The notes beneath the pieces were generated by a model. That model saw only the letters and a program-made list of their open reading frames with translations. It was not told the origin of the DNA and made no database searches. A program made the position numbers and the translations under genes. From Vermamoeba vermiformis (Eukaryota), in assembly GCA_045837725.1 (NCBI GenBank), contig JBEWZL010000293.1, positions 1-33,616 on the forward strand: DNA of 33,616 nucleotides, in the 5' to 3' direction. This document shows, piece by piece, positions 1-30,609 of the stretch; the stretch's first letter is position 1; each line of letters begins with the position of its first letter.

Positions 1-278
1 TGTTGCAAGAAGCTGCAGGCAATTGGAAATTGCACCAACATTTGGCCAAGTTGTTGAACGTCGATTGGACTGCACTCGAGTCGGCAAAACCGAAAGAAGT
101 TACCGACGATGCTTGGATGACGTTGGTTTGCATTGCTTATTTACACAATATTTGCAGCCAGCACAAGTCAGAATGGGAATTGATCGTGCAAAAGGCTGAA
201 AATTGGTTGAAAACTGTTGGTGCAAACAAATCTGAATGGAATCAACGAGCAAGACAGTTGATACAACAAAGTGTATGA
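1..278 (+). CDS. 3' end (last exon) of a VIT-VWA / VWA5A-like gene, truncated by the window start
   Basis: LQEAAGNW...WMTLVCIAYL...EWELIVQKAENWLK is the C-terminal helical region of VWA5A-like proteins and is paralogous to the ends of the genes at 7507-11178 and 23183-26842. Confidence 0.85.
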   Translation, partial: LQEAAGNWKLHQHLAKLLNVDWTALESAKPKEVTDDAWMTLVCIAYLHNICSQHKSEWELIVQKAENWLKTVGANKSEWNQRARQLIQQSV

Positions 279-364
279 AAGTAAACGTCCGGTATGTTGA
301 TTTTACCAAATAAGGCAATTTTATCGACCACTTCGCCACGTGACCAATTTCTCGTTCGTTGATC

Positions 365-447
365 GCATCGGTGCCCGAGTTGGTCTAAGGGGTTGGATTA
401 AGGCTCCAATATCTTCGGATGCAAGGGTTCGAATCCCTTCCGATGCA
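365..447 (+). tRNA. trnL-AAG: tRNA-Leu, anticodon AAG
   Basis: Acceptor stem GCATCGG/CCGATGC plus discriminator A; anticodon arm TTGGA-TTAAGGC-TCCAA; long variable arm; T arm AAGGG-TTCGAAT-CCCTT; T-run downstream. Confidence 0.96.
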
Positions 448-452
448 ATACC

Positions 453-457
453 TTTTT
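453..457 (+). terminator. Pol III T-run terminator of tRNA-Leu
   Basis: TTTTT 5 nt after the tRNA; a T6 run sits at the same place after the second copy (27017-27022). Confidence 0.65.
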
Positions 458-4551: not shown

Positions 4552-4566
4552 AATTGATAATAACGT

Positions 4567-6085
4567 ATGAATACAGATTGCAATTATCGCTGGATCCGAA
4601 AACAAGAAGCGAAGGAAAAAGACGTCACAACCGCATCATCGACCAACGAAGGAGCATCAAATTTTGATTTGAAAACTTTACCTAATGACGTCGTACACTA
4701 CATAATAGGGAATAATAATGAATGGATCCGAAACCAATTAGCGAAACAAAAAGAAACCACATCCGCGTTCAAGTTTGACTTGCAAGCCTTGCCTGAAGAC
4801 CTCATATACTACATAATACCTCATTTGCACTACGAACAAGTAATAATGCTATCCTTGACCAATAAGCGGTTCTACAAGTTGGTCAACGAAGGTCAACATG
4901 TTTGGAGACAAACCTCGAAGAGATATTTTACGAGTATATCGGTTACTACTGCAGCAGACTTCTATAAACAATATAGGTATGTTTATATTTATGAGTATAA
5001 TTGACGTTTAATTGATTCCGCTGGATGTAGATCCAAGTTTGAAACTGGAAAATTACTCCACCAGTATATCATTCCTATTGGAGGGAGTCCGGCATCGATA
5101 GAACTTAATGGAGACAAAATAATATTGACTCAACCATCGACGATAGAAATACTCGAAGCTCATTGCTTGGACAAGCCGCGGATGCAGAATCGTTTTCGCA
5201 AGAAATTTCGTGTCTTTCCCGTTGAAAGGGCAATGAACCGAACTGCTCGATTATATAATAATAAGATATTTACTCATGCGATGCATGGTGTTAATGAATA
5301 TTCAATATCGGTCATCAATGCAGAAACTGGATCTCTAGAAAGCGTGGCTCCATGTTCGCTTAATCTAATGGACGATTATTTATACTTTACTATTGATAAC
5401 AAGTCATTATTAGGAAGGGGTAAGTTTTTAATTAAGAACCGAAGCATTGCTAATTTTTTTTCAGGCTTTTCGATGGATCTTACAACACAACAAATCACCC
5501 AGATTGATTGGACAGCAGAACTATACAAATGGGTTATAAGTGACGATATATTATATGGATTGCAGAGAGTTAACTATTTGGAAGCCAATGAGTTGAAGCT
5601 ATTTGATCGAAGAACTTCCGAGAAAATTGTCGACGAATTGCCCTGCAATGACTTAAGATGTTTTAATGTCAAAGACAACGATATTTATACCGTTTCATCG
5701 CAAATTCTGCAATGGGACAAACGGTATTTATATCAACCGGTCAGAAAATCAATATCGATCCCTACTATCAATCAATATCTAATAAGAACGAGGTATGCAG
5801 TGCCTTTACTTATAGTAACATAACTAGTACTAATTTTTATATAGACTAAAGGTGAGCCAGCTATAGATTTGACAGCAATGAGAGTCATGGGACCAGATTT
5901 GGGATCTGACCGATTTTACTTGGGAGCTTGCCCAACTGCCTAGAGAAAAGTGCTATATAACTACTAATGGTATATTAGTCGCTTATTCAGTCGACGGAGC
6001 AATTAATGTTCGACAGAGCACGTGTACAGAGAGTCTGTCGAACACAATTTCAACTAGCCCAGAATTACGATGTAATGTTTTCTAG
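4567..6085 (+). CDS. F-box protein with a beta-rich (propeller-like) C-terminal part; last exon unresolved
   Basis: LQALPEDLIYYIIPHLHYEQVIMLSLTNKRFYKLV..VW is a clear F-box. Introns at ~4977-5030 and 5420-5464 keep the frame. After the intron at ~5793-5844 the frame stops at 5866, while another frame stays open to 6085. Confidence 0.7.
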
Positions 6086-6307
6086 CGCATCAAAATAGAT
6101 TTTCATAAGTGTAATTAAAATTAGCGGTCTCGGAGAACGTGGCTGGTTACGCTTACAGTTTAATTCATGAGTTAGACTTTTCGTTTTGGCGCAAAGCAGT
6201 ACACCACAACACGGTTATTTATCTTTAGTAACTTTTGTTTCATATTTGTGTATAAACAAGATTTCATAAGTAGGATTGTTAGCTCAAAGTAACTTGGGTT
6301 AGCACAG

Positions 6308-7397
6308 ATGCAGCAAGCGGCGATCGAGCAAAGTTACGGTTATTTTCCCTACGAAATTTTGGAAATAATTACAAAATATGCAAATGCACGATCTAAATCG
6401 GTACTATTGCAAACAGCAAAACTGTTCGCTCGAATAATGGATGAGGAAACTTGGAAAATATTTTATCTCCTTAGATGGCATTGGAAAAATCTATTCACGG
6501 ACAGGAATAATTATAGCGACGAGGGTAAGTTTATTTTAGGCATTAAATAACAATTTGGACCAAAATTTTAGATTTAATTCGTGAGATCGAGCAACATTTG
6601 AGCGTTCGTCCTAACGACTACGTGGAGGCACAATTTTACGACAAAAATGCTTGGAAAAATAGGTACAAATATAGAGCGCAATTAGAACTCGCTGGAGGGC
6701 CACTGGAGATGGATCTTGGCATGGACGTGCCGGATTTGTACGAAATTAATGCGAACTCGTTAGCTCTTTATAACATTGGAAATATGGAAAATATTCAATA
6801 CAGCAATCTTTCAAAAGTTGACGCACATGTCGAGCGAGAGTACAGAGGAGATGAGCATCTATTCAAATCTGATTACACAGAACGGATTGAAGCTAATTGC
6901 ACCGCACACCATGCCATAGTTATTGGTCACACAGGTGCTCCAGTACGAGTACGTGTCGAAATAAGGAACAGAGAGTCTCCGCAATGTAACAAAAAACAAC
7001 AAGTTCATTGTAACCTACGATTGCTAGCGTACAACAACGCAAGCCGAAAATGGGACGTAAGTACAAAATATAGGTCGGAAATAGTAGTAGAATTTCGAAG
7101 ATGATTTAAGCACATAGAACTAATATTTTGTTGCAGATCATCTCGGCTCAGTATTCCAGCCAGTTTATCGCAGAAGATATTCTTTATTATTATCGGCCTT
7201 ATTGCAAAATATTTTGTGATGCACTGATTCTCGAGGACGTGCTGGTGCCAGGCAAGAAGGAATCAAAAGATGAAAAATATATTATCGTCGATGTGTTCCA
7301 GTTGATTACGGCAGCTGTAGGGGCATTAGTTTATGATAGGCACTACAATGTAGATGCATATTTCACTCTTGATTCAGTCATGCTCGAGGACGACTGA
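6308..7397 (+). CDS. F-box-like protein, 3 exons
   Basis: FPYEILEIITKY...VLLQTAKLFARIMDEETWK is F-box-like. Introns at ~6525-6571 and ~7057-7136 join three ORF pieces in frame. Confidence 0.7.
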
Positions 7398-7506
7398 TTG
7401 GCAGATCTGCGGCGACGAATAAGAAGCACTTCTTCAGGACTACTTCTGTTTAAATTGGAAATAAATGCGTGCACGCATGGTTCACTAACGTTGACTGAAC
7501 AGCAGC

Positions 7507-10500
7507 ATGTCCCAAGGGTGTATTGACATCAAGAGTGGGCAGTTGTGCCCATTAGTTTCGCTGCACATCCGATCACTTTTTGTTGACCGCTTTGGTAAAT
7601 CCGAAAATTATATTATTAGTGTAGTTAATAATATAATTAACGTGATGTTTAATGGTAGGCTCAATTGAAGTCGTTCAAGAATACGAAAATTCTGGTGCAG
7701 CGCCGATAGAAGCAGTATTCACGTTTCCAAAAGACGATCAAGCAGCAATAACAGGATTCAAAGTGAAAATAAATGACAAAACATTGATTGGTCAAATCGA
7801 ATCGAGTGATGAAGAACAAGAGAAATACAGTGATGCGATTGCAGAAGGCAAAGGAGCATACTTACTCTCACAAAAACGCTCAGATATCGTCACACTTTAT
7901 ATTGGTAAGTTATAGTGAGCAATTAATTGCGGAAATTAAGATTCAGTGCTAAATCCATACAAATGATAATTTTTTAAAACTTTGACGGAAGCTAAAGTTA
8001 TTCTAATAATTCAATATCAGTAGTATTTATTAACGTTAATATTACGCACATTATTTCAAAATTATTAGTTGGCTCTGAACAAACATTGGATCGGGATCTT
8101 ACCATATTTGTACACAGGCAGCCTTTTACCAAAACAGAAGGTTCAAGTTGAGATCACCTGCGCTGCAGAAGCACAATGGGAAGGAGATTCGCTTCGAATT
8201 ACATTTCCAACGACCATTGCATCTCGTTACACGCCCGAGCAATTTCAACGAGACGAAGAACACCAGATCAACCCTGCTTATCATTCAAACGATAACACAT
8301 TGCCTTATGACTTCGAATTTGAGTCATTGGTGCAATTGACCCACGATAAGATCTCATTGTTTGAATCCCAACGCACAAATTTTCCGAGATCGACATCTCG
8401 CCAGATGGCACCGAAGTGAACGCGAGAGTGAAGGCAACGAAGGGAGATATCGTGTCTGATAGAGATATAGTGCTTATTGTCAATACGAAGGATAACTCGT
8501 TACAAAAAAGGCCAGTTATGATCGATGAAGTTGATGAGGACGGACACCACGCACTTTACCTCTCATTCATTCCAAAAATATTATGCAACGAAATTTCCAA
8601 GAACATAATGCACGAGATTGTATTTTTGATTGATAGGTAAGATTTCAGTTCTTATCTTAAGAAAGAAAAATTTTGATCTAATCTTGACTTCTCTTTAGGA
8701 GCGGAAGTATGGACGGTCAGCAAATGGTTTGTGCCAAAGAAGCTTTGCAACTATTTCTGCGATCATTGCCATCGTGTTATTTCGATATTGTAAGCTTCGG
8801 AAGCAATTACAGCCAATTGTTCGGAAATCCAACGCTCTATTCCAACGAGTCCTTATCAAAAGCCACGAAAGAAGTGAACAAATTTTCTGCCGATTTAGGT
8901 ACGTACATATCGCTAGGGTTAGGGTTTAGAATACTAAATTTGTTAGGTGGTACCGAGATCCTCGCGCCATTAAAGAAGATCTACTCGCGAACACCCACAA
9001 GAGGCAAACGAATAATATTCATATTAACAGGTATGTTATAATATTAAATAATAATAGTACGTTATTAATTAATACTGGCGTTCAGATGGCCAAGTCTCGA
9101 ACACGAGACAAGTGGTAGATCTAGTCAAACAGAATTCGGCTACAACTTCAGTATACGCATTGGGAATAGGTATCTCTGTTAGTAGAGACCTAGTCAATGG
9201 AGTATCGCAGGCTGGTAATGGCTACGCTGAGTATGCTACAGCGAACGAGCGATTACAACCTAAGATCATGTCATTTTTGACACTTTGCCACTTCATCATC
9301 GAATTTCTGCCGTTAGACATTTAAATCAGTCATTTGCCTAACACAATGATATTTCAATATTCTATATCATGATATCGGATTATTGAATTGGCTAAAGTAT
9401 TGACCATTCTGTACGATCAGTTGAAACGAGCGCTTGAGAATTTCTCGGTTCAGATTGATTGGCACTCAAACAAAATTGAACAATTTCCCGAACATATTTC
9501 TCCGATCACTGATGAAGACCCTTTGCACGTGATGGCGTTCGTTGATGACGCGTACCTTCAAAAGTAAGGATCATGACAAAAACACGCATTGTTTCTTAGT
9601 ACTGACGATATAACCTTATTACTAGGAATAAGAGCATAGAGATTAAAATAACGAGCAACAATACCCAAGAATATTCGATCGCGTTTGACTTATCACAAAT
9701 GAAGACAGTTCGGGGCAACAGAATTCATCAATTATTTGCGAAGAAGAAAACGGATGCGATGGCATCTGCGGACAAGAATCAAATTCGCAATCTGCAAATA
9801 TTGTGCAAGAAGTACAATGTACTGTCAAGTGTCACAAGTTTCGTTCTTGTGGAACCCCGAAAAGAAGCTGCAGCGACCAGTCCTGAACTTGTTAATGTTC
9901 CGCTTGCCAGGCCCAAGCCTCCACCAAGAACAGCGCAGACATTGGTGACGAACGGCACCGTGTCATTTGGCGGAAAGTTTTCGAACAGTTACAAAGCCAC
10001 TATTGGTGCAGATTTTGAAATGTGCAGAGTCTTAGTGAATAATCGCGAGATCAAAGTGCAACTTTGGGATCTTGGTAAGTTCGGTTCGTTCATGAAAGAA
10101 ATTTTCACTGAAACTAAAACCTTTTTTTTTCAGCTGGAGCAGAACGATTTGGGCACCATTTATCAAGGGCATTTGCTTCAGGTACTTCAGCAGTCTTATT
10201 AATGTACAGCGTGGCTTCTCGGTCTTCATTCGATAATGTGAAGACCTGGATGGACTCTTTGACTGAACAGATCGACTCCGATATTCCGGTGGTACTAGCA
10301 GGCAATAAGATTGATTGTGAAGGAGAAGTGTCAACGAAGGAAGGACAAGAATTGGCTGCTTCATTAGGCATTCCTTTCTTCGAAATTTCAGTGAAAGATA
10401 CAACGAACTTGGGTGACTTGGCCAAACTACTCTTCGTTAACATGATATTCAAACGACCTAACAGTGCTTTGCATAAAGGTAGGCCGGCACCTATTATATA

Positions 10501-11178
10501 TTATAGATACTAACGCACGTAACAGTTATTATTCTCGGAGACAGTGGTGTCGGAAAGACAAGTTTCAACAGACGAATGGTCGGATCCACAATTGACTTGG
10601 GCGAGTGCAATTTACCAATATCGACAATAAGCTCACAAAGTACCATTACGAATCAACCTCAAAACAATACTTCGGTACTTGGCAAAGTATGGCAAGGTTT
10701 CAAGAGCGTGGTTGGATACTTTAGCAAATCCGGATCTGGATCGGCAGTGCCAAACACTCCTCGTATCACGAGCCAACAGATACAACAATATAAGCCACAA
10801 GTTTCAAATCAAATAATAAGTGATATCATTTTGGCACAAAACGCCGAAGGCGCATTCATAATCGATGCAGCTCAATCTAATCAATTCTTTGGTGGCAATT
10901 ATACGGCTCAAATACCACAAGGAGCCACGCTGAATGTTTGGATGACCATCTTTTGCGTGACGTACTTGACGGTCAAGTGCGGTCAACACAAGTCAGAATG
11001 GGAACTCATCGTTCAAAAAGCTGAAAAATGGTTGAAGAGCGTTGGCGGCAATAAGCCTGAATGGAATCAACGTGCACGACAACTCTTTGCGGTACAATGT
11101 GATCCAGCCTGCTCACGATCGCTCGATATCCACGTTGAAGTAGCCAGGTATGAAATTCAAGACTGTGAGCTTACATAA
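7507..11178 (+). pseudogene. VIT-VWA (VWA5A-like) gene with an embedded circularly permuted Rab7-like GTPase, copy 1; disrupted as sequenced
   Basis: VIT (QEYEN..PIEAVFTFP), MIDAS DR|SGS, GGT and FILTDG, then GTPase motifs and the C-terminal helical domain. Relative to copy 2 it has a 1-nt frameshift at 8367-8369 and a 15-nt deletion removing a splice donor at ~9269. Confidence 0.65.
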
Positions 11179-11507
11179 AATTTAATTTGTTACATGTCAG
11201 CGGAATAATGTAGACTACTATCACGCACTTTGCTTCACGTCTGAAACAACTATTCTTAGTTCCCCAGCAATTTATGTGCGTAGATGGCGGGCTTTAAATA
11301 ATGGTGGCAAAAAGCATCATTAAGTCAGTGATCAGGTGTGTTTCAGCTCGGATCAGAGTTGTAAAATGGAGTTTACAATAGACGTTCAATAACTTAACTG
11401 GTTATTGCTCGGTTTAAGTAATGCCGTCTTGGTGAATCAGCAAATATATTTTTGTTTTGCGTGAGCGGTTGTAAGTTCTAACTTTACGTTAAGAAAGACC
11501 ACAGCTC

Positions 11508-14500
11508 ATGGGTAAGTAAAACCGCGGTTAAACTGATGCATAAACTAACCCAATTTGCAGAGAATAGAGCGACAGTGGATATTACGGCAAAGTACGAGGC
11601 ACTGACTGCTCATCTTCGAACTCTCCAATTTCACTTGCAGTCTCGGGGAATAGAGGCGCCAGAAGTTGACCGAGCTGTAGCAACACTAGCATATTATGAA
11701 AGACAAAATGCAACCGTCTTGTGTGGAGTGGCTGGAGCAGGCAAATCCACCTTGTTGAACATTTTACTGGGCTACAGCTACCTACCGACCACCAAGCCTG
11801 ATGAACCTGGACTCTCCGTCACTCCAATTGCTATAGAAGTCAGAAAAACGCGTTCTATAGGAGACAGAATCAAACTTGAAGTGCATTTGATTGACGACGT
11901 ATCTTGGAAAATCAAACGAGGAAGGAATATCTCTCCGGTAGAAGAGAAGAGCGAAGAAGTAACGGAAGCAAGTCAGAACTTTCTCAGCGCTGTTTTTGCC
12001 CAGCAGTCGGTTTTTGACTTCAATAACACATTCGACTGGAGTAACAACCTTGCTAACTTGAAAGAAGAGCAATTTGATGACCCGATTTCCGATTTCCTTC
12101 GTTCTACACGAGTGGTTACTGAATGGGATACAGTTCCTTCTGTTGTCAGCGACAAACTACAGAGCTATATTGATGATCGTCTGGCGCCATTGATCGTGCA
12201 GAAGATTGTCTTAATTGGAGCTTTCACCAACGGACACTTGCCAGAAGAAACAATTATATTTGATCTTCCTGGCAGCGGTGACATAAACGACGAAAAAGAA
12301 GACCAAAGACGAAAAATGCTAGTTAAAGCCCGGCGCGCCATTGTTGTGGTGCCACATAATACGAGATTTAAAAGCGTCAAAGATGCGGTCACCATGACTA
12401 ATGAGCTCTCCAACACCTACGTTGACAACACTGTCTCTCTTCAGGACCAGAGCTTGATAGTTTTCAATCGGGCATGGAGTAGAAAGAAGGGCCAGACCTT
12501 AGAATCAGCTTGGCAGGAATACCAGCAAAAAATCAGTGGTACGCAGCAATCAATATTGGCCAACTGTGCGTTTTTGGATGATAATGAAGTTGACCACACT
12601 GAATTCAACAAATTCTTTGACACGCAACTGGCTGTTATCAAGAGTTTTATTGCACAAATCAATCTCGAAAAAGAGAAAGCCTTCACACAAATTCTGGACC
12701 AATTGCGAATTGCTGCTTGGCGTCTTGGATCACAGAAAGCGCCATCACTTCCAGATATTCCAGAACAATTTAAGCAATTTCATGTGGGTCTATCCAAGCT
12801 AAAACATGCTTTAGTTGAGCAAGTATCCTGTGCACCAGCGAACGCAAGCTTGTTCAAAGAGACATTCGACAAGATTGTTCGCTGCTTCAGTCATAATTGG
12901 AAGTCAAGTGATGCCTTTGCTAGGTATCGTGGAGTGTATGGAGGACGTAAGTAAATTGACTTTTTTTTTCATCAATTATTAACAACACATCCGTAGGCTC
13001 AGGCAGTGCTGATGTACCACAAGACTTTGCTGATTTACTATTGGCAAGTCAGCAAATTGATTTTGGCTTATTGAATGAGCATCTGAGCAAAGTTTGGCAA
13101 ACCAATGCAACCAAGCAGTTCAACCAGTCTCTGAACAAAGCTATAAGGAATGCAATTCACTCCGTTATTTTGAACAATTATTCTGGATTTTTGTATGGCC
13201 CTTATTATGGCACTTCAAACTACATCAATGTCTTCATGGAAAGATTTTGGAGAGACTGGCCTACAATTAAGGAATTGGTCATTGCAGCAATTAAATTCCA
13301 GCTTAGTGAATTCAATACTCTGGTAGAGCAACGTGTCCTACTATTGACAACAATTCACCAGAATTCTCAACTAACGGTGGATCAAATGAAATCAGAAGTC
13401 TCTGCAACCCTTCCATTACCAAATCATCAAGCCATCCGTTGGATTATGAAATCTGTCTATCAACTATATAATATATGGATTCAATATCACCCTGGATACC
13501 AGTTTGCAGACTTGACAGCTGTAAAGCCAACTCAACTCTGGGAAAAGGAAGACAATGTTGAATACCTTAAACCAACCTTTACTTCATTTCTGCTGTTTGG
13601 CCAAGCTCTCCCATGGTTACCTCGATTTTCAACTCCAACAGTTATTGTCATACGCTACCTTGGTTTATCAAAGGAGCATGTAGAGGTATTGAAAAGATGG
13701 TTAGATCCACAGCTCAAACAATCACGAAAGTTGGAAATAACAGTAGATGTAACTGGAAATGACATTGATCAAGAATCATTGAACGAATTGAACTCCAAGT
13801 ATTCAGCATTGAAAGTTGAGTTCGTAGATTCCATCAAGTACACCGCAAGCTCTTTGGTTCCTGATGCTCCTAGCTGCCGAATTGGAATTGTCATTGGCAA
13901 TGCAAATTACAATGCTCCAATTGCTAGTTGTGCTAAGAATCAGCAGTCAGTACGCCAATTCCTGCAAGGCTTGAAGTTCACTATCTTGGAAACAAACGAA
14001 ATCAAAACACGTAATGAATGGAACTCGCTAATATTGCAACTGGAGGATCAGTTGAAAGAACAAACGTCACGAGCACTGATTGTATTCTACTACAGTGGCC
14101 ATGGGTGCATTGTCGAAGGAAAGCACTGCATAGTGTCCACAAGCAATGATATTATTCCGTTGACGAAGCTTTATCACATTTGCCAAACCAAAGATACCAC
14201 CAACATATTCATAATGGATTGCTGTCAAGCAGGCTTTAGTTCGGACCAAGTCGATGCTGCCATCGTTAAAGAAGCAAAAGACAAGTCCTTCCCTGCTCGC
14301 TTGCTTCGATCTTTTGCCAGCTGCCCGTTGAACTACGCCTATGCACCACTTGCAAACGTCAATACAGTATACACGCAGATCAATCTCAAGCATCTAGAGC
14401 GCGCTCATGCAACTAGACAATCGGTTGTAGAAGCATTGAGAGCTGCTGCCGATGAGTACGATCAATTGACAGATGTTCAGAAAGGTCAACCGTACATCTC

Positions 14501-14534
14501 CGTATCAGGAGCCTTCCCCTTTTTTAGCCTTTAA
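11508..14534 (+). CDS. Dynamin-superfamily (NUGGC/SLIP-GC-like) GTPase fused to a caspase-like C14 peptidase, ~975 aa, 3 exons
   Basis: Exons 11508-11511, 11561-12946 and 12997-14534 splice in frame. GTPase motifs: G1 GVAGAGKSTLLNILLG..LPT, G2 VT, G3 DLPG, G4-like FNR, plus HNWKS..A..RYRG. Peptidase motifs: IVIGNANY, FYYSGHG, FIMDCC, QPY. Confidence 0.85.
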
Positions 14535-14713
14535 GTTACAGCAATTGCAATGACAGTCATGACCGCTGTGCTTCCTTTCACTTTTCTTTCCCCTTAGTAA
14601 ACAATAAATCACTTCACGGCTTAACATCAAATAGTTCTCGTTCCAATCAATCTTGTTAGCATTATTTTAATATAAGTATAAAAAAAGATCGCAAACATAC
14701 ATGGCATCAGAGT

Positions 14714-16911
14714 TTAATTGAGGTAATCTCCGTCCAAAAAGTTTGCAGCTTCTTCATCCGTATCCACATGTTCATTTGTATCGTCATCAACGCTGATTGG
14801 CTTATCATAATCATTGCGAATAAGCACTAATATTAATACGGCCCCAATAGCGGTAATTATTCCGCCGAATATAAACACGAATTCGAAACTGTTCCATATT
14901 CTTAAGATTAGCGATGACGTGCCTGAATTAATCAACTGCGCAAAATACATCGCCAATGTGCTCGTTGCCAAATATAGACCTGTTAACCATATTTAGTAAT
15001 TCTTCATGGATTCAACAAATTCGCTCATAAAAAAACTTTACCTTTTTTGGCAGGAGTGTTCTGTACGCAAACAGCAGATATGCTCCAAGGAATAATGAAT
15101 AACTAAATATTACAAATATTAATATTATGGCACTAACAAATGGCTCGCTGAAGCGTTATGGATCTGCCTTGATTTTCAAGATATTGAATGCTTACCGAAA
15201 TAATGCTGGAACTCATCACCGCATTAATAACCAACGCTACAGGAAAAGATCTAACGAATAATGTAGCAAAGAAGGTCAAGGCCTTAAATTATCAAAATGA
15301 TTAGACGTCCAAAAACAACACTCTTGAATCATTAAATGACTTACGAATGATAGCTGAGCGAAGAAATAAACGGGCTTAACGCCAATCTTATTGACCATAA
15401 AGATCAATAACGGTGCATAAAAGAATGAAACGAGACTTCCAACAGCGGATCCGGTCGCAGCCAACATAACTCCGTTCTAATTATAAATAGGTTATTAATA
15501 TTCGCCAAAATGCGCGCTAGTAACTGTTAATGAAGCTTACGTTATATTTGTCGTGCGCTTCAGACCCATTAGGCGCGGATGGATCTCCACCAGCAATATA
15601 AATTCCGTACCAAGTCGATGAATAGAATGTCCAAGTAGAATAACCAAAGTACCCAAACAATTTAACGATAAAGTTTCTCTTCATTCGTCGAGGTAAGTTC
15701 GGCAACGCGAACACGACTTCCTAAAAAGGAAATAATTTGTAAGCGCCTGGATCTGCTTTGGTAGAATCGATAGAATAATGAATCTACGTTAAGTGCACTA
15801 TAATATGGATGTAATACTATATCTCTATTACGTTATAGACTTACCTTAATGCTGCCCCAAAATGAAATCTTCTTTGAAACCACGTTGTTTGTAGGTGGCT
15901 CCTTGACGAATATAATGCATAATAATGAGCATACTATGAGCAAGAATGACCCTAACGTCACCATCGCTCGAAGTTCGTTGCCCATAAACGGCAAGACCAT
16001 CATAATACTGAATGATACGTGCGGTATTTTGCCAGCAAGAAGTCCCGACAAAACTCCTCCGAGACTAGCAAAGCCTTAATAATACGTTATTAGCATTGAA
16101 CTTTAATGATATACGATTACTTACTGGCAATAAATCCATTGCCTGACTTTTGTTGCTGCGACGAAGCTCGATCCGCTAACAACGCGATAATTGCGGGCTG
16201 AAAGATACTCAAAGCGAAATCGAGGATCCAAAAGCTTGTTATAGCTAATGCTAGAGCAATAGCGGTCGAGTCTTCAGTGTCTAAGAAAATTATAAGCTCG
16301 TGTAACGGATTTGGATCGCGTTTTTTCGTACCACCGAGTAACGTTCCAAAATAATCAGAAAAGGCGAAGCATTCAAAGAATATGACAGTAGATATTGTGC
16401 CTAATACTATGAACGGCTTTCTTTTGCCCCATCTGTTACGCATGTGTCAGATTTTATTGCGGAAATTTAGCATAGAAATTTCCTTATTTGGATTTTACTT
16501 ACCGACCACGCCAATTATCGCTTACAGTTCCAATCAATGGCTGCGTTAGTATTCCTGATACTGGCCTACATAATTACGTTAATTCGATGCTCACTATTTT
16601 GAGAAGAATCAGAAAAAACGGATCTATTATTTCTCCGTTAATGCTTTGCTAAGCTAAGAAATTGATTATATTCAATAAATGTGGAGTATAATGAGGTCAT
16701 ATTATTTGCGTCGTGAGATTGCCGATAAATGAGAAAAAAAATTTTCGCTCGATCTACACTTACCCAGCGAGCCAGATCCAAGGCACGATCCAATTTTCTA
16801 GGCCCAAATTAAGTAATGTAGGTGTCGTAAATATCGATTGAATAGCGCGAACAAAAGCCCAGGCAAAGATCGGCAATGTTATTAAGAAGAGTTCTTTTTT
16901 GCTAGCCACTT
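14714..16911 (-). pseudogene. SLC45/SUT-family MFS sugar transporter, copy 1, lacking its start codon
   Basis: Same exons as copies 2 and 3 (WLAGPVSGILTQPLIGTVSD..RWGKRKPF). A ~300-bp deletion removes the ATG and first ~33 codons, and the frame has a stop just upstream of the junction. Confidence 0.7.
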
Positions 16912-18100
16912 TGTATCATATTGAATTGCCAGTTAACAATGCAAAATATGCACACTTGCTCAGGACTTCTCCACCATCAAGGAAAGCAGAGACGGATTCA
17001 CGTGGAACTTTTCTTCAAATGAAACATCAAACACTTCAAAAAAAATATTTGTTAGTAAGTAAAATACAAATATGCAAGCGTGCAGTATTATTGGGAAAAT
17101 AACTTGTTGGTGAACAAATCCAGATGGAAAACAATTAAACTTAATTTAATTGATTGTGTACCATCTCATTACTTACCGCATAATATTTTAAAGCCACCAA
17201 TACGCTATATTTAATAGTATGCAATATTTTAACGATTTTGTTGTGCCCAGTTCATCTCACCACCTTTTTAAACGGTCTTTAAGACCTTTAAACAAGCAAT
17301 TTAGCATCAAAAACTGCATTACAATCGTTTAATTTATCCTGCGTTGTTTGAGCGTTCGGCATTGTTTTCATTTTAAATTAATTTTTCGTGACCAGATGAA
17401 GAGAACACGCACGCATCTGATCACAAAAACATTAATTTAAAATGAAAACAATGCTGAACGTTCAACAACACAACATAAATTAAACGATTATAATGCACCG
17501 TTTGATGCTAAATTGCTTGTTTAAAGGTCTTAAAGACCGTTTAAAAGGTGCGATGAACTGGGCACAACAAAATCGTTAAAAAATTGCATACTATTAAATA
17601 TAGCGTATTGGTGGCTTTAAAATATTATGCAGTAAGTAATGGGATGGTACACAATCAATTAAATTAAGTTTAAATTTTTCATCTAGATTTGTTCACCAAC
17701 ACGTTATTTCCATAATACTGTACCGTAGTGTACGTTTGAATATTTGTATTTTACTTACTAACAAATATTTTTTTGAAGTGTTTGATGTTTCATTTGAAGA
17801 AAAGTTCCACGTGAATCCGTCGCTGCTTTCCTTGATGGTGGACAAGTCCTGAGCAAGTGTGCATGTTTTGCATTGTTAAATGGTAATTCAATTGTTACAT
17901 AATTCTAGTTCGTATTTACTTTTGTACGCTGCAACAATTACGAATGAAAAGTCAATTGAAATTATCAAATTCGCTGCGGCTGGCACAAATAATAGAATTG
18001 CAGAGCTAGAACAACTATTTATTATTAGTCTGCATCAGGAGACTACTGCAACAAATTTCTAAAAGAAGATCTAGGTTGACGAACGGGCATCTCGATCGTG

Positions 18101-20404
18101 ATGAGCCAGAAAAGCTACACGTTTGATACAGAACATATTAATTCAGATTTATATGAAGATAATCTCTTAAAATTTGATCGATATTCTTCGGGCCAAGAAC
18201 AAGTGGCCAGCAAAAAAGAACTCTTCTTAATAACATTGCCGATCTTTGCCTGGGCTTTTCGCGCTATTCAATCGATATTTACGACACCTACATTACTTAA
18301 TTTGGGATTAGAAAATTGGATCGTGCCTTGGATCTGGCTCGCTGGGTAAGTACAGATCGAGCAAAAAAACTTTTTTCTCATTTATCGGCAATCTCACGAC
18401 GCAATAATATGACCTCATTATACTCCATATTTATTATATTATCAATTTCTTAGCTTAGCAAAGCATTAACGGAGAAATAATAGATCCGTTTTTTCTGATT
18501 CTTCTCAAAATAGTGAGCATCGAATTAACGTAATTATGTAGGCCAGTATCAGGAATACTAACGCAGCCATTGATTGGAACTGTAAGCGATAATTGGCGTG
18601 GTCGGTAAGTAAAATCCAAATAAGGAAATTTCTATGCTAAATTTCCGCAATAAAATCTGACACATGCGTAACAGATGGGGCAAAAGAAAACCATTCATTG
18701 TGCTAGGCACGATATCCACTGTCATATTTTTCGAATGTTTCGCCTTTTCCGATTATTTTGGAACGTTGCTCGGGGGTGCGCTGAAAATAGTTAGATACAA
18801 ATCCGCTACACGAACTTAAAATTTGATTTAGATACCGAAGATTCGACTGCTATTGCCTTAACATTGGCTATAACGAGCTTTTGGATCCTTGATTTCGCTT
18901 TGAGCGTCTTTCAGCCTGCAATTATTGCTTTATTAGCCGATCGAGCTTCATCGCAACAACAAAAATCAGGCAATGGATTTATCGCAAGTAAGTACTAATA
19001 TCATATCTATATATAATATATAACGTTATATCATAAGGCTTTGCTAGTCTCGGAGGAGTTTTATCAGGACTTCTTGCCGGCAAAATACCGCATGTATCGT
19101 TCAGTATTATGATGGTATTGCCTTTTATGGGCAACGAACTTCGTGCAATGGTGACATTAGGATCGTTTCTGCTTATTATTTGCTCGTTATTGTGTATTAT
19201 ATTCGTCAAAGAGCCGCCAACGAACAACATCGTTTCGAAGAAAATTTCATTTTGGGGCAGCATCAAGGTAATGAATTAATACAACTATAGCTATAGTACC
19301 GTCATATTATAGTATTATTAATACGGAATTACTATTCTATTGCTAATTTCAATGTAGAAAAATGCTCTTACAAATTATTTCCTTTTTAGGAAGTCGTATT
19401 CGCGTTACCCAACTTACCGCGACGCATGAAAAGGAATTTTATCGTAAAATTATTCGGATATTTCGGATATTCGACTTGGACCTTCTATTCTTCGACTTGG
19501 TACGGCATTTATATTGCTGGAGGAGATCCATCCGCGCCCAACGGATCTGAAGCTCATGATAAATATAACGTAAGCATAATATAGACTAAATAGTATTATT
19601 TTATCGTAATTTAATGCTGTTTTATTTTTAGAATGGAGTTATGTTGGCTGCAACCGGATCCGCTGTTGGAAGTCTCGTTTCGTTCGTTTACGCACCAGTA
19701 TTGATTATTATGATCAACAAGATCGGCGTTAAACCTGTCTATTTCTTCGCACAGCTATCATTCGTAAGTCTATCGATCTTTTGCTGAAGTTTTGGATGTG
19801 GATCTGATATCGATGTATTTTACAGGCGTTAACATTCTTTGCTACGCTCTTTGTGAACTCTTTCCCCGTCGCTTTGATCATCAACGCACTAATGAGCATC
19901 AATATTATTTCAGTAAGTTTTCATCATAATCGAAAATTTGGTCGCGGATGCAGGTGCCAATCCGTAACTTCAGGAGAGCTAATATTGAATAATAATGCTA
20001 ATTTTGATTATTCGTAGCTATTTATTATTCCTTGGACCATATCAGCAGTTTGTGTTCAGAACACACCTGCCAAAAAAGGTAAAGTATTTTTACGATCAAA
20101 TTGAAATTCGACGAAGAATTACTAAATATGGTAATTAGGACTATATTTGGCAACGAGCACGCTCGCGATGTACTTTGCACAGTTAATTAATTCAGGCACG
20201 TCATCGCTCATCTTAAAACTGTTCAATAGTTTCGAATGGGTGTTTTTGTTCGGCGGAATAATTACCGCTATTGGCGCCGTATTAATATTAGTGCTTATTC
20301 GCAACGATTATGATAAGCCTATTAGCGTTGATGACGATCCCAGTGAGCTCGTGGATCCAGATGAAGAGGCGGCAAGATTTTTGGATGGCGATTACATCAA
20401 CTAA
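18101..20404 (+). CDS. SLC45/SUT-family MFS sugar:H+ symporter-like protein, copy 2, multi-exon
   Basis: Signature IWLAGPVSGILTQPLIGTVSD..GRWGKRKPF, FWILDFA..FQPAIIALLAD and GGDPSAP; multiple hydrophobic segments; GT-AG introns. Confidence 0.88.
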
Positions 20405-20451
20405 CGCAAACTTATAATTGTAATACTAAATAATATGCCCAGAGCAATTAT

Positions 20452-21175: not shown

Positions 21176-21327
21176 TTATATTGAAATAATGTAGATATAA
21201 TTATTTAGCGAACATATAGCGATATCAAGTCTCGTCTTAACGATCAGATCGAGTCAAACTGCGCAACGTCAAATTAAGAGCAAAGTATATTTATGGGTCT
21301 AACAGTAAATGCAACTATATTAAGAGC

Positions 21328-22510
21328 TTATTTGCGCAAAAGAAGGGACAAAAAGTCGCTGGCGAAAGCGTTGGTGCAGGTCAACTTTGGATTCACCTTG
21401 TTGGGAGGAGCCTGAACAACAGCAACGTTAGTATTGCAGTGTAATTACTTAAGCGGATATTATCTTACGTAGATGGAAGGAGAGAAGGGACCAGAAACGG
21501 TATTGAAGAAGTTGAGTTGGAGATCTCCCAAGTACTCAATACCCTCAACGTCAATTTGGACAATAGTGGTGGTCTTAGTAGAGACCCAAATAGTGACAGG
21601 GGCAGTGTAGCCGAAGACAGCAGCTATTAACGAGAGTTAATAAGATGCTTTTTTTTTTTGATATTTCAAAACTCGTGTCAGATTGCAAGATCCGTGTCGT
21701 TTTCTTACCTTCGAACTCCCAGCCAGTGCAAGGTTTACCAGCGACGACCTTGTTGCCGACGAATGAAGCATTGGAAGGCAATTGGAAGGGGAAGAAGATC
21801 AAGAGGGAGGCAGGAACAGAGCCTAAAAGGTACGTGTTCGCATTAGTTCACGAAACAAAAACACAAAATACCGAACATTGGTAGGTTCACTGGAACTTTC
21901 CAAAATATCACAAATCGATCATATACTAATGCCTTAAAGCTTAATATGACTTACCAAAGTTCCAGCACAAAGGACCTTCGTACATGTAACCTTGAAACGA
22001 GCAAGATTAATTAAAGATTTGGCAAGTTTCTCATATTGGATTATGGCTCATACCAGTAGTAGTGCCTTGGCTAGCATCAGGAGAAGCAACGAGGTTGGTA
22101 TGGAAAGACAAAGGAACATCTAAATGTCAAGAATGTCAGTCTTAGCTCGATCGGATTTCGATCAGATTCTGCAACTTACACTCTTCACCACCGACTTCCA
22201 AGAAAGAGCCAGCGTTGACGTAATCCAAAGCAAAGAATCCCGAGACAAAGACGGGAGAATCAGTTGGGGAAACGTAGCCAGGCAAAACAACTGTCAAATG
22301 GTGAAATTAATTTCTGGATCTGAATCATCGCTTGTAATCTTGCCATACATTAAACTGCACGTTGCACAATTTAAGGACAATTTTATTATTATTATTTTTA
22401 AACTTACGCGTGAAGTTGGTGTAGAACTGTTGAGGAAGCTTTGGCGGGGTTTGGCAGAAGGCAGTGCCAACGACGCAGAGAATAGCAGCGATAACGATAA
22501 TCGATCTCAT
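21328..22510 (-). CDS. Ependymin-related (EPDR-like) secreted protein, copy 2, 7 exons
   Basis: MRSIIVIAAILCVVGTAFCQTPPKLPQQFYTNFT...; same exons and motifs as copy 1. Confidence 0.75.
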
Positions 22511-23182
22511 GTTTTAAGATTGTGGTTCAGTGCTTATCAATAAACAAATAAAATCAAGAATAAAATCTGTTTTTGTGCTTGCCAAACTCTTCGCAGGAAC
22601 TTTCTTATGGACCGGTGATGTCCACAAAAGTCCCTTTTCGGATTAATATTACGACCCTTATGCAAGGACTGAATCATGATTCAAGCATCTCGATAACCGG
22701 AATATACCTAAATGTAAAAGGGTGATAAATTCAGTCTTACCACCGAAAAAATTTATTATAATTATTATTATTATAATCATAAATATGGCAGTAATTAGTA
22801 AGTAAAAGCGAGTTCGAACGGAACAGATCGAGTACGTTGGGTGAGCTCACCATCAGACGAAGGCAGGATTAACAATACTCGTATGGTTTTGAAGCAAACA
22901 TGTTCATACGGGTATACCCTTACAGAAGTCTATTCAAATTCAACTGCATCCAGATGATTTAAACCACAGCTTATGACTTCGCGACTAGGCTTCGCTCAAA
23001 TACTTGAAGCTATTACACCGACGTACTGCTTAAGAAGCACCGCTCTATGACACATTTGTTACTTCTGGTGCTTCAGATCGACTGCTGGCCACCGAAATTT
23101 CAAATACACGTCACTTCTGGTCTATTCTATTGCCTTAAATAATCGCTAATTGAGTCTACTACTGATAATTTGAACATCAACG

Positions 23183-26100
23183 ATGGCACAACAAGGGTTT
23201 ATCGACATTAAGACTGGACAGTTATGTCCTTTAGTTTCTCTTCAAATCCGATCCGCCTTCATCGATCGTTTTGGTAATATTCTTGATAATATACAGCTGT
23301 ATAAATAACTTAGTAATTTTTTTTCCTTAGGTTCTATTGAGGTTGTCCAAGAATACGAAAACACAGGCAAAAATCCGATAGAAGCAGTATTCACGTTTCC
23401 AAAAGACGATCAAGCAGCAGTAACAGGATTCAAAGTGAAAATAAATGACAAAACGCTGATTGGTCAAATTGAAGCCAGCGATGAAGCACAAGAGAAATAC
23501 AGTGATGCAATTGCTGAAGGCAAAGGTGCATATTTGCTCTCTCAAAAGCGATCAGATATCGTCACTCTTTATATTGGTAAGTTTTATCGTGGTAAATTAC
23601 GCAAATCTTGTCATCTTTTGGATGCTGTGCTACATCTGGTCCCGAAAATATTTTCTAAATCTTACACGAACTTTAAAATAAATTAACTTAGCTTAAATTG
23701 GGTATAACAATTTATTCATGATTTTTCTCGACATTTATTCGATTTTTTGGTCTCGTCTAAGAAAAATCGGATTCGGATCTGACTTAACTTTTATTTAGGC
23801 AGCCTGTTACCACAACAAAAGGTTCAAGTCGAAATAACATGCGTTACAGAAGCTCAATGGGAAGGCAAAGCACTTAGAATAACATTCCCAACGACCATTG
23901 CACCTCGTTACACGCCTCAACAATTTCAGCAAGACGAAGATCACCAGATCAACCCTGTTTATCATTCAAACGATAACCAATTGCCATACGACTTCATATT
24001 CGAATCGTCAGTGCAATTAACGCATGATACAATTTCATCATTTGAATCTCCAACGCATAAATTTTCGGAGATCGACATCTCAGCGGATCGAACCGAAGTC
24101 AGCGCGAAAGTGAAGGCAAAGAAAGGAGATATTGTGGCTGATAGAGATATCGTTCTAATAGTTCATGCCAATAAGAGATCGTTGCAAAAAATGCCGATTA
24201 TTATTGATGAAGTAGATGAAGCCGGACACCACGCACTTTATCTCTCGTTCATTCCAAAAATAATTTGCACCAAAATTTCGAAGAAAAAAATGCACGAAAT
24301 TATATTTGTTATCGACAGGTAAGAAATTCAACGGTAATTATCATTTCAAAATTTTAAGATCCATATTTAAATTTTTATAGGAGCGGAAGTATGGACGGTC
24401 AGCAAATGAATTGTGCGAAAGAAGCTTTGCAATTATTTCTTCGTTCATTGCCCGCATGTTTCTTCGACATTGTCAGCTTTGGATCGAACTTTCAACAAAT
24501 GTTTGGATCTCCTGCTCAATATTCTAACGAGTCTTTGGCGCAAGCTACTGAACAAGTGAAGAAATTTCAAGCTGATTTGGGTACGCTGCAAATATTCATT
24601 TTTATATTTACTAAACGTGAGAATAAGGTGGCACGGAGCTTTTGCGGCCTTTAAGCCAGATCTACCAACAATCACCAAAAGGTGGCAAAAGAATCATATT
24701 CGTGTTAACAGGTACGTTATATGTTAAATCACATATATTAGTATTAATTAATTCTTTGCTTTAGATGGTCAGATCTCGAACACGCGTCAAGTGGTGGATC
24801 TCGTCAAAAAGAATTCGGCGACAACTTCAGTATTCACGCTGGGAATAGGCGATTCTGTTAGTAGAGACCTAGTTAATGGCATGGCGCAGGCGGGTAATGG
24901 TTACGCTGAATATGCAACGGGCAACGAGCGACTTCAACCTAAGATCATTCGACAGGTAAAAATGTCATTTATGACACTTTGACACTTTGACACGTGTCAA
25001 ATTGAAGTTTATTAAGTCACGCTATACAACCTTAGTACTACATTTAAATCGATGATAGTGTATTTTGAATACTATACTTAGCTATTTTATGAAATGACAG
25101 TTGAGGCGTGCCCTTGAAAACTTCTCCGTTGAGACTGATTGGCATTCACGAACGGTAGAACAGTTCCCAGAACATATTTCTCCGATCTCCGATGAAGATC
25201 CGTTGCACGTGATGGCATTTGTTGACGATAGGTACCTTCGAAGGTATAAATTTTATCCTTCTAAACGAGTTCCAGGAATTAATTCTTTTTTATTTTAGCA
25301 ACAAGAAGATTACGATCAAAATCAGTTGCGATGACAAAAATGAATATTCGATCCCGTTTGATCTCGCTCAAATGAAGACAGTCCGCGGCAACAAAATTCA
25401 CCAATTATTTGCTAAGAAAAAGGCTGATGCAATGAGTTCTGACGTTGCAGCCAACAATAAGAATCAAATTCGCAATCTGCAAATATTGTGCAAAAAATAC
25501 ACCGTGCTGTCAAAAATCACAAGTTTCATTCTAGTCGAACAACGAAAAATTGCTACAACGACAACACCAGAGCTCGTAAATATTCCGCTTGCCAGACCTA
25601 AGCCTGCGCCGTTGACAGCTCAAACAATAGTGACCAATGGCACGGTGTCACTTGGCGGAAAATTCTCGATGAATTACAAAGCGACAATTGGTGCAGATTT
25701 TGCCACGTGCAGAATAGTATTGGCTGATAGAGAAGTGAGAGTGCAATTATGGGATCCATGTAAGTATCATTCGTTCATGAACCAAATTTTCACTGAACTG
25801 ACTTCGAAATTTTTTCACAGCCGGATCTGAACGATTTGGTGGACCGTCGAGAATATTTTATAGTGGAACGTCTGCAGCTGTTATTATGTACGATGTGCAT
25901 TCTCGAACTTCATTTGACAACATGAAAGAATGGACGGAGAAATTGACCGTGCAAGCTGGATCCGACATTCCGATGGCTTTAGTGGGCAATAAGATTGATA
26001 CAGATGGTCAAAAAGTTTCAGCGGGAGAAGGCCAAAAATTAGCAGATTCATTGGGCATTGCTTTCTTCGAAATTTCCGTGAAAGATACCACGAACATGGG

Positions 26101-26842
26101 TGACTTGGTGAAACTGCTCTTCGCTACTATGATATTGAACGATCCGAATAATACTGTGCTTAAAGGTAGGCCGACACCTATAATAATAGTTAATAGATCT
26201 AACGGGGTTTTAGTTATTATCCTTGGAGATTCGGGCGTCGGAAAGACCAGTTTCAACACGAGACTTGCCGGATCCACCATCGACTTGAGCGACATTGATA
26301 CGCGAAACTTAATAGGCTCGCAAAGTACCTCTCAAAATGCCTCTCAAGCCCAGGCTACTAATGACTCGTTACTTGGAAAAGTATGGCAAGGCTTCAAAAG
26401 CGTGGTTGGTTATTTCAGCGGATCCAGATCTACAAATGACGCGTCAACTGCGACTACAAATACGAATAATACAAGCAATAATGTTAACACTATGCCCGTG
26501 CAAAAGTCACAAAATGTCATGGTGCAGTTGCCCCCGAAGCAAAAGAAGGTCGATTTGAATGCCATTATTTTGGCGCAAAACGCTGAAGGCGCTTGGAACA
26601 TCACCGCAGCCGAATCAGTTCAGCTTTTTGGATCGGATCTGACAGCTCAAGCACCGCAAGGCGTCAAACAAGATATTTGGATGACGATAGTTTGTATCGC
26701 TTATTTGGCGGTCAAATGTAGCCAGCACAAGTCAGAATGGGAATTGATCGTTCAAAAGGCTGAAAATTGGTTGAAAACTGTTGGTGCAAACAAACCTGAA
26801 TGGAATCAACGCGCAAGACAGTTGATACAACAAAGTGTTTGA
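23183..26842 (+). CDS. VIT-VWA (VWA5A-like) protein with an embedded circularly permuted Rab7-like GTPase, copy 2, apparently intact
   Basis: MAQQGFIDIKTGQLCPL start, VIT domain, MIDAS DR|SGS, GGTEL and FVLTDG. Then [44 protein letters not shown] and the C-terminal EWELIVQKAENWL domain. Confidence 0.88.
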
Positions 26843-27011: not shown

Positions 27012-27506
27012 ATACCTTTTTTGCGTTCTAGATCTCTCGAGGGTACGTGGCCTATTAATATTGTTGCGTAATTCCAGCGGATCAAACCAAGAAAACTGAG
27101 TAAATAATATTTTAATATTTACATTGTTGGGTGAAGCAAAACGCGAAAAACGTTCGTGTTCGCCTTCGTTTTTTTTAGAATCGCTACAAAATTATTGGCT
27201 AACTATTTTTAAAATGGACCAATGAGATTTTACCGGCACCCTATAAATATACCTGCCATTAGCGACCGCTAAAAGATTCAATAACACTGGTACTTAGTCG
27301 AGTTCAACGAGTTTGAGACGTTTTGGCGTATTCCATGGTTCCTTTCCATTTTTGGAGTTAGCCCTGTTACGCTATTGGTCCGCATTATTTTAAGAGCGGC
27401 CAAATAAATCACTAGGCACCTTCCTTAGAAGAACCTACCGATACCGACTTCGGCCAAGAAAAAATCGTTTTTTGGATCTTGTTTGTTGATAAGCACAATC
27501 TTCAAC

Positions 27507-28681: not shown

Positions 28682-28771
28682 GCTCTTAATATAGTTACGT
28701 GTACAATTAGACCATAAATATACCGACACTAACTCTTGATTTCGGTGACGTTTGATGAGCGATACGATATA

Positions 28772-28927: not shown

Positions 28928-29250
28928 GGATTCGATGTCGATTCCTTTTAAAATTAATTTGAAGAAGATTCAAGAGAGGAAAGTGACCTTGCGTTAATTG
29001 TGTTGACGAAAAAATATGAAGGGAGCACAATTTGAGCAGCAGCCACGGTACAACATTATTTATAGTCTTGGCTCCTTTCGATTGTTTTCCTATAATAATT
29101 ATCCTAGTAATTATTTAGAAGTACTTCGCTTAGGTTAACGTTAATTAATACGAAGGGAAAGTTCCTGCGAAGAGTAGGCAACAACCACAAAAATCTGATT
29201 TTATTCTTGATTTTATTTGTTTGTTAATACGCTGAACCACAAGCTTAAAC

Positions 29251-30408: not shown

Positions 30409-30609
30409 GCTCTGAATATAGTTGCATTTACTGTTAGACCCATAAATATACTTTGCTCTTAATCGATAGTTGCGCAGTTTGACTCGATCTGATCGTTAAG
30501 ACGAGACTTGATATATCGCTATATGTTCGCTAAATAATTATATCTACATTATTTCATATATAATTGCTCTCGGCATATTATTTAGTATTATTACAATTAT
30601 AAGTTTGCG

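Follow-up and report, generated by a model that had tools for sequence, protein, structure and literature searches.

Two kinds of naturally permuted GTPase are set out in PMC2430557: the YRG proteins, with the motif order G4-G5-G1-G2-G3, and cpRAS, with the order G3-G4-G5-G1-G2. That paper credits an earlier survey (Anand et al. 2006) with the argument that a single circular permutation of the GTPase fold was possible in nature, and presents cpRAS as having then established a second natural permutation. Here we describe a stretch of 33,616 nucleotides from Vermamoeba vermiformis (contig JBEWZL010000293.1 of assembly GCA_045837725.1, positions 1 to 33,616 of the forward strand; hereafter the window), which contains two paralogous genes, copy A and copy B, each encoding a VIT domain, a VWA domain and a Rab-like G domain. 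In both copies the G domain is circularly permuted, with its motifs in the order G2, G3, G4, G5, G1. On the sequence evidence, we read this domain as a third natural way of cutting and rejoining the GTPase chain, located in a Rab-derived insert of a VIT-VWA family. Full-text searches of one literature library brought up no account of this order or of a permuted Rab; one of these results was judged from titles and the opening lines of abstracts, for the 15 papers listed out of 73.

Arrangement of the G domain in copy A

The G domain of copy A is encoded by three exons, with the following features.

9942-10596 (+), permuted G domain of copy A, three exons
9942..10074 (+), N-terminal G-domain piece: switch I/G2, strands 2-3 and the first half of G3, including its Trp-Asp start
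9990-10016 (+), switch I/G2, YKATIGADF, from motif search and alignment
9990-10007 (+), YKATIG core of G2; the G2 string of the initial annotation starts at 9975
10074 (exon end) and 10134 (next exon start) (+), G3, WDLAGAERF, split by the intron
10075..10133 (+), intron 1, 59 nucleotides, phase 1, GT..AG, within DxxG
10134..10478 (+), middle exon: second half of G3, switch II, G4, G5, helix 5 and an 8-residue connector
10304-10315 (+), G4, NKID
10382-10396 (+), G5, EISVK
10479..10525 (+), intron 2, 47 nucleotides, phase 1, GT..AG, with a TACTAAC branch-like site
10526..10596 (+), C-terminal G-domain piece: strand 1, P-loop/G1 and helix 1
10537-10560 (+), P-loop/G1, GDSGVGKT, downstream of the second intron

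The motif strings quoted in the initial annotation are all present in the sequence, each at the place it gave. The upstream exon corresponds to positions 22-55 of the Pfam Ras model (23.3 bits, cut-off 21.6) and the middle exon to positions 55-152 of the same model (E-value 7e-23). The cut in the chain falls between helix 1 and switch I, in copy B as in copy A. A six-frame translation of the whole window contains just three matches to the P-loop pattern GxxxxGK[ST]: one shortly after the G5 exon of copy A, one shortly after that of copy B, and one in a dynamin-like gene. Because the pattern is so rare and two of its three occurrences follow G5 exons, chance is an implausible source of the motif.

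A gene family with the permuted order

Copy B and the remnant of a third family member are found in the same window.

23192..26842 (+), copy B gene, same architecture as copy A, stop codon at 26840-26842, with Pfam matches to VIT, VWA and the Ras pieces
25627..26284 (+), permuted G domain of copy B, same order and layout as in copy A (Pfam, motifs)
25675-25701 (+), G2 of copy B
25760-25820 (61 nucleotides) and 26166-26213 (48 nucleotides) (+), introns of the copy B G domain, phase 1, at the same codons as in copy A
26225-26248 (+), G1 of copy B
3..275 (+), tail of a third family member, of the L002/P0010 type described below: C-terminal domain and stop codon, the rest lying beyond the window

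Copy B aligns with copy A (7513-10737) at 72.9% nucleotide identity over 3,319 alignment columns (self-blastn), and window positions 113-457 are 92.8% identical to the end of copy B plus the DNA beyond it. The initial annotation had proposed a diverged paralog with the same permuted order and the same intron positions, in which G1, G2, G4 and G5 are conserved while other residues and synonymous sites differ. All of this is borne out: both copies run G2-G3-G4-G5-G1, their introns share codons and phase, and the G1, G2, G4 and G5 strings are identical, with G3 being WDLAGAERF in copy A and WDPSGSERF in copy B. Over the whole domain the copies have 68% amino-acid identity and agree at third codon positions with a value of 0.58.

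A scan of metagenome contigs confirmed three further loci (L001, L002 and L003) from 180 pattern matches. L001 and L002 have the same G2-G3-G4-G5-G1 order and both phase-1 intron positions, which lie at the same codons in all four genes (A, B, L001 and L002). The sequence of L003 equals that of L002 and comes from a different assembly; L001 and L002/L003 derive from two different metagenome assemblies. L002 is remote, with 30-39% amino-acid identity to the other members over the domain. As in the Ras superfamily, all five G motifs are present in A, B, L001 and L002, here in the permuted order. G5 reads SVK in place of SAK in A, B and L001, a variant found in canonical Rab matches too, and the catalytic position of G3 holds Ala in A, Ser in B and Asp in L001, with Gln kept in L002.

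The permuted arrangement is old and common to at least four genes. That it predates the duplication of copies A and B, as had been suggested, is supported by the order and intron positions shared by L001 and the remote L002. When the G3-G5 exon was placed in a tree together with 40 canonical Rabs, all permuted domains (four) fell to one side of a branch with a Shimodaira-Hasegawa-like approximate likelihood ratio (SH-aLRT) value of 80, and the grouping of A, B and L001 is firm (SH-aLRT 99). This topology is consistent with the permutation having arisen once, ahead of the family's diversification.

An assembly mis-join or annotation artefact as the source of the order has a probability close to nil. 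The same order occurs in the two window paralogs, in L001, in L002/L003 from separate assemblies and in a spliced contig from run X5 (see below), in line with the argument of the initial annotation that a shared order speaks against an artefact; mis-joining was rejected on these grounds. Moreover, one contig of 5,050 bases spans 9779-14700 with no differences. In favour of an artefact stands just the fact that the sole DNA run covering the whole stretch, from which this contig comes, may be the window's own source and is hence not independent.

In the metagenome, the 3' end of L003 (2605-3197) overlaps the 5' end of L001 (1-210), which gives an L002-type gene, a short unrelated open reading frame (ORF) and then an L001-type gene; a tandem array is thus present in that organism too. 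In protein collections, an exhaustive search recovered family members only as exon-sized fragments (P0005, P0007, P0010 and P0012), which account for 4 of the 26 top matches examined; the remaining 22 are longer proteins with canonical-order Rab domains, mostly in tandem as judged by eye. A word-index search with the G3-G5 exon gave two matches from 259 candidates, one of them a relative, and none of 474 candidates scored with the G2-bearing exon, nor any of 236 with the VIT-VWA exon of copy B. No full-length annotated relative appeared in the word-index and exhaustive protein searches, the ESM Atlas returned just generic small-GTPase clusters (score 0.80), and a scan of viral contigs found no relatives among 246 pattern matches. 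In DNA run X1, short contigs over the VIT motif (7706-7782) reach a word depth of 1000-2400 over a baseline of about 160-170, and the bins 8620-8863 and 9596-9839 are about doubled in depth. These values, which are not copy numbers, hint at many more family members with near-identical short stretches in that genome.

Splicing of the G-domain exons

The sequence of the window is eukaryotic, has a G+C content near 0.39 and contains short GT..AG introns of 47-64 nucleotides. Intron 2 of the G domain falls precisely on the junction of helix 5 with strand 1, and its retention in copy A would cause a frame shift followed by a stop. Run X5 carries a different organism label and is RNA only by guess. 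One of its contigs (record 9, 2,134 bases) aligns to 8440-11011 at about 97-98% identity to the window with seven skips, six of which are GT..AG, two of these being exactly 10075-10133 and 10479-10525. This contig is a spliced, transcript-like form in which the exons are joined as G2 / G3-G5 / G1.

The X5 contig differs from copy A over 9626-11011 by 11 synonymous and 14 other changes among the differences listed, with 10 more unlisted; within the G domain the listed differences comprise four synonymous changes and four replacements, all four conservative. In the linker behind the G domain it has 45 letters in place of 6 at 10761-10768. At 9269-9418 it skips 148 bases with GT..AT ends, and four different letters stand in the place of the skipped stretch. 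The interval that separates the two VWA exons (about 9270-9417) is thus more complex than a single intron, a micro-exon or a strain difference being conceivable. For introns 1 and 2 of the G domain and for an intron at 9031-9085, identity between the two copies is 0.75-0.76, which exceeds all of 200 shuffles (maximum 0.63-0.69), and the other three intron pairs compared are at the shuffle level (0.49-0.62). This likeness could be due to local gene conversion or to a constraint within the introns.

Comparison with known permuted GTPases

As described in PMC2430557 (Elias and Novotny 2008), cpRAS is a member of the RAS family that is cut between strands 2 and 3 and has a TIE G2 motif; it is N-terminal to a zinc-finger and Sec23/24-trunk VWA region, or inserted among macroglobulin-like domains. 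The domain described here resembles cpRAS in being a eukaryotic permuted Ras-superfamily member whose P-loop segment comes straight after helix 5, and in forming part of a large protein in which a VWA domain occurs as well; no function is known for either. An assignment to cpRAS was rejected on three counts. In order, model positions 22-55 are found upstream of positions 55-152, and just strand 1, the P-loop and helix 1 follow G5. In sequence, G2 is TIGADF (A, B and L001) or TIGVEF (L002) rather than TIE, and Rabs give the best matches. In context, the protein order is VIT, VWA, G domain and C-terminal domain, so that the permuted Rab-like domain is C-terminal to VIT and VWA_2/VWA_3, whereas cpRAS is N-terminal to its VWA region.

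With the YRG (YlqF-YawG) proteins, as described in the same paper (PMC2430557), the domain shares a natural circular permutation of the P-loop GTPase fold in which the five G motifs are kept. A YRG or YlqF-type arrangement was rejected, G2 and G3 preceding G4 in all four genes. In addition, YRG proteins are portrayed there as ancient, universal and tied to the ribosome, whereas the domain described here is a young derivative of a eukaryotic Rab.

Kinship with Rab and proposed origin

The nearest relatives of the domain in both sequence and structure are Rabs, the closest solved sequences to the G3-G5 exon being Sec4, Rab26, Rab8A, Rab27 and Rab1A (E-value 4.5e-16 and weaker). L002 keeps a 20-residue stretch of G3-switch II of canonical Rabs, including the catalytic Gln. 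Around switch I and II, where the Rab-specific RabF motifs lie, it retains IGVEF, a 13-residue stretch and YYRGA, and copies A and B retain IGADF and Trp-Asp, the remainder being diverged. Canonical Rabs are small free-standing proteins with a linear G1-G5 order and C-terminal prenylated cysteines. The domain described here is best matched in sequence and fold by canonical exocytic Rabs (Sec4, Rab8A, Rab1A and Rab26/27), but it departs from them in linear order, free-standing form and C-terminal prenylation cysteines, being internal and permuted and followed by a linker and another domain; moreover, copies A and B carry other residues in place of the catalytic Gln and of part of the Rab-specific switch II stretch.

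Many of the best library matches go from G5 directly into the G1 of the next Rab domain, and the solved tandem Rab EhRabX3 (PDB entries 5c1s and 5c1t) is among the sequence matches. In tandem Rabs such as EhRabX3, a P-loop segment follows G5 and helix 5 on the same chain, as it does here; they consist of complete domains in canonical order, whereas the present genes have one G2-G5 set and one G1. Tandem Rabs are a plausible evolutionary intermediate towards the permuted domain. In such an origin, a Rab would have been duplicated in tandem; the first copy would then have lost its P-loop segment and the second copy all that lay behind helix 1, with the conserved intron 2 marking the seam.

Folding, constraint and alternative readings

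When the pieces are re-ordered canonically by script, the domain aligns end to end with a Rab1-like domain (58 of 166 residues identical for copy A, 68 of 168 for L002). The gap between helix 5 and strand 1 is 8 residues, and no remnant of a second domain follows helix 1. Intron 2 of copy B is in frame and open, so that the G3-G5 exon could be read through into G1 for AlphaFold2. With a 20-row alignment, the resulting model has a mean predicted local distance difference test (pLDDT) of 87.1 and a predicted template modelling (pTM) score of 0.82; in it the G1 piece is modelled as a paired strand at 131-135 (block pLDDT 94) and then a helix at 141-148. The best Foldseek matches of this model are Rab structures over 103-112 columns of the G3-G5 part, among them Rab8a (3tnf_A, root mean square deviation 1.6 over 106 columns), Ypt51, Sec4 and Rab3D. 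The three exon products were also modelled as separate chains with GTP. The G1 piece reached an interaction score (ipSAE) of 0.50, with a best control of 0.21, which is graded as weak support: 51 of 78 solved complexes attain the mark, as do 2 of 108 mismatched pairs, and passes at 0.60 or below comprise 5 of the 78 solved complexes and all 4 passing mismatches of 180. Contact agreement in these runs was at least 93% and partner pLDDT at least 63, with the caveat that pieces of a Ras fold may pass merely through likeness to solved structures. We infer a single Ras-like fold, reassembled from the two pieces and able to bind guanine nucleotide, since G1, G2, G4, G5 and the DxxG core of G3 are intact.

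The G domain is under moderate purifying selection. Between copies A and B, the ratio of nonsynonymous to synonymous divergence (dN/dS, Nei-Gojobori) is 0.26 for the G domain (bootstrap 0.16-0.38; 183 codons, dS 0.89), and 0.12 for its P-loop piece, which is 88% identical. The values for the region ahead of the G domain, the linker and the C-terminal domain are 0.16, 0.38 and 0.09, respectively. For the G domain compared with that of L001, dN/dS is 0.20 (A) and 0.17 (B); the comparisons with L002 are saturated. At four-fold sites of the G domain the divergence (K4) is 0.61, giving a dN/K4 of about 0.38, and identity by codon position is 0.78/0.81/0.58. The initial annotation had placed nucleotide binding under purifying selection and proposed comparing the domain with its flanking linkers. 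The selection itself is confirmed by the 0.26, well below 1, but constraint on the motifs is compatible with binding rather than a demonstration of it, and the contrast with the linker is weak, since the linker too lies below 1.

Taken as a whole, the data are best explained by one Rab-derived permuted G domain of tandem-Rab origin, refolded into a nucleotide-binding switch within a VIT-VWA protein, a reading to which we assign a probability of about 0.8. Several observations count against it. The downstream G1 exon matches positions 2-40 of the Pfam Roc model at 20.1 bits, under the curated cut-off of 27. Three of the four genes (A, B and L001) have lost the catalytic Gln from G3, the constraint on the G domain is no more than moderate, and an SH-aLRT value of 80 is only modest support for the monophyly of the four permuted domains. 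The copy B model is not the full spliced domain, as it excludes the G2 exon and includes 16 intron-encoded residues; it leans on tandem-Rab rows whose G1 segment belongs to the next domain, it speaks to strand pairing and not to the location of the P-loop, and with an alignment of just 4 rows the model carried no information (pLDDT 44.9). The RNA nature of X5 is a guess, and its contigs cannot show transcript ends. Finally, in two RNA-seq runs with the same species label, of each of which about 46-48% was read and compared with 7400-14700 (the copy A side), no read matched copy A at 99% identity or more. The same runs gave just seven and five reads at 95-99% on copy A, of which five of seven and five of five lay only partly on the stretch, at about 10816-11059; these partial reads probably come from a paralog.

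Some of these points would also be expected of a degenerate tandem Rab, that is, a pseudoGTPase lacking its P-loop and followed by a vestigial P-loop that does not fold back, the whole being a purely structural module that binds no nucleotide. Tandem Rabs are common among the nearest library matches, the Gln is lost in three of the four genes, the dN/dS is above expectation for a housekeeping Rab, and the complex prediction supports a single domain weakly. We nevertheless consider such a degenerate module unlikely: no part of the domain is under stronger constraint than the G1 piece, G1 is intact in all four genes, including the remote L002, the gap between helix 5 and strand 1 is short, there is no trace of a second domain past helix 1, and the AlphaFold2 model pairs the G1 strand with high confidence.

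The RNA-seq result bears on another possibility, in which copy A is an unexpressed or decaying paralog of otherwise functional family members and has kept its motifs intact through recent gene conversion. The similarity of the G-domain introns between A and B, next to three of six intron pairs at shuffle level, would fit local conversion of this kind. All checked exons of copy A are open, however, with intact splice sites, and dN/dS is below 1 in every segment. The spliced X5 contig, moreover, is about 97-98% identical to copy A and 73% to copy B, and the listed X5 replacements in the G domain (four, beside four synonymous changes) are all conservative. Decay of copy A is thus very improbable, and a single refolded, nucleotide-binding domain remains the preferred reading.

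Host protein and proposed switch

The protein that carries the G domain in copy A has the following features.

7507..11178 (+), copy A gene (VIT, VWA, permuted Rab, C-terminal domain), from a presumed ATG to the stop, with many short introns
7664..7912 (+), VIT domain (Pfam PF08487, E-value 8.5e-21)
8699..9321 (+), VWA domain (Pfam VWA_2 and VWA_3), interrupted by introns
10597..10821 (+), low-complexity linker of variable length, 48% identical between A and B with several gaps
10822..11097 (+), conserved C-terminal domain of about 90 residues, with 38 invariant columns in seven sequences

The start codon of copy A is presumed only. The VIT domain of copy B is matched with an E-value of 6.7e-22 (Pfam). 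In copy A the VIT domain is followed by a VWA domain with the D-x-S-x-S metal-site motif (D-R-S-G-S), which spans an intron (8637-8698); the same joint is present in the X5 contig. The C-terminal domain has no Pfam family, and a profile search gave no solved relative (best E-value 0.15). The host protein has no evident signal peptide, and in this, as in its N-terminal VIT domain and its VWA domain with D-x-S-x-S, it resembles cytosolic VIT-VWA proteins of the VWA5A / PARP4 kind. Word-index searches gave no longer relatives that would tie it to a named VIT-VWA family. VWA5A / PARP4-type proteins are not known to carry a GTPase insert.

The chain enters the G domain at switch I (G2), passes through strands 2-3, G3, switch II, G4, G5 and helix 5, and, behind the 8-residue connector, finishes with strand 1, the P-loop (G1) and helix 1. 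The domain is inserted between the post-VWA region and the C-terminal domain of about 90 residues, and in the proposed fold both links to the rest of the protein would leave it beside switch I. Because both connections would exit there, the state of switch I may be passed directly to the flanks: its ordering on GTP would act on the VIT-VWA module and the C-terminal domain as a built-in switch. In A, B and L001, which have another residue in place of the catalytic Gln, hydrolysis is likely to be intrinsically slow.

A fuller and more tentative picture, which we hold at somewhat less than even odds, is that the G2-G3-G4-G5-G1 topology is a third natural one for P-loop GTPases, that it arose from a tandem Rab, and that it was kept since both of its ends adjoin switch I. 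The nucleotide state would then be relayed mechanically to the VIT-VWA module and the invariant C-terminal domain, making the product a self-contained GTP-gated adhesion or scaffold protein of a tandemly expanding family. If the permuted domain is as proposed, the existence of a third place to cut the chain, after helix 1 and ahead of switch I, would mean that the fold can bear having the P-loop and switch I apart on the chain, and living relatives with or without the catalytic Gln would provide a natural series linking chain connectivity to nucleotide binding and switching. The case would also bear on how permutations arise, with tandem Rabs as an obvious intermediate and a conserved intron on the seam, and on protein engineering, as a natural G domain with adjacent ends that is insertable into a host protein.

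Other features of the window

Directly downstream of copy A lies an apparently separate gene, at 11482-14534 (+), which combines a dynamin-family GTPase N-domain (PF00350, E-value 1.8e-09, P-loop at 11725-11748) with a caspase-type peptidase C14 domain (E-value 2e-14) in which the His (YSGHG) and Cys (DCCQ) motifs are present. Its two domains are joined across a 50-nucleotide GTAAGT..AG intron (12947-12996), and its X5 depth is zero. A fusion of copy A with this dynamin-caspase gene is unsupported: the frame of copy A stops at 11176-11178, and X5 depth is 1.05 over 11060-11303 and 0 beyond. Just upstream of copy A, 6293-7397 (+) holds further open frames with no family match.

The remaining features are as follows.

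4564-5001 (+), F-box-like domain (PF12937, E-value 6.8e-07)
1578-2741, 21315-22511, 27503-28694 (-) and 29250-30421 (-), copies of a small gene with a signal-peptide-like start; the ORFs tested have no Pfam family
14714-16911, 18201-20404 (-) and 30610-32822, and 17424-20451 versus 30560-33611, segmental duplications, direct and inverted, 83-93% identical

The four copies of the small gene are diverged (72-83% identical) and interleaved with the VIT-VWA genes. The segmental duplications, which are large, carry a gene for a membrane protein with a weak MFS_1 match, and the window is a patchwork of duplicated blocks.

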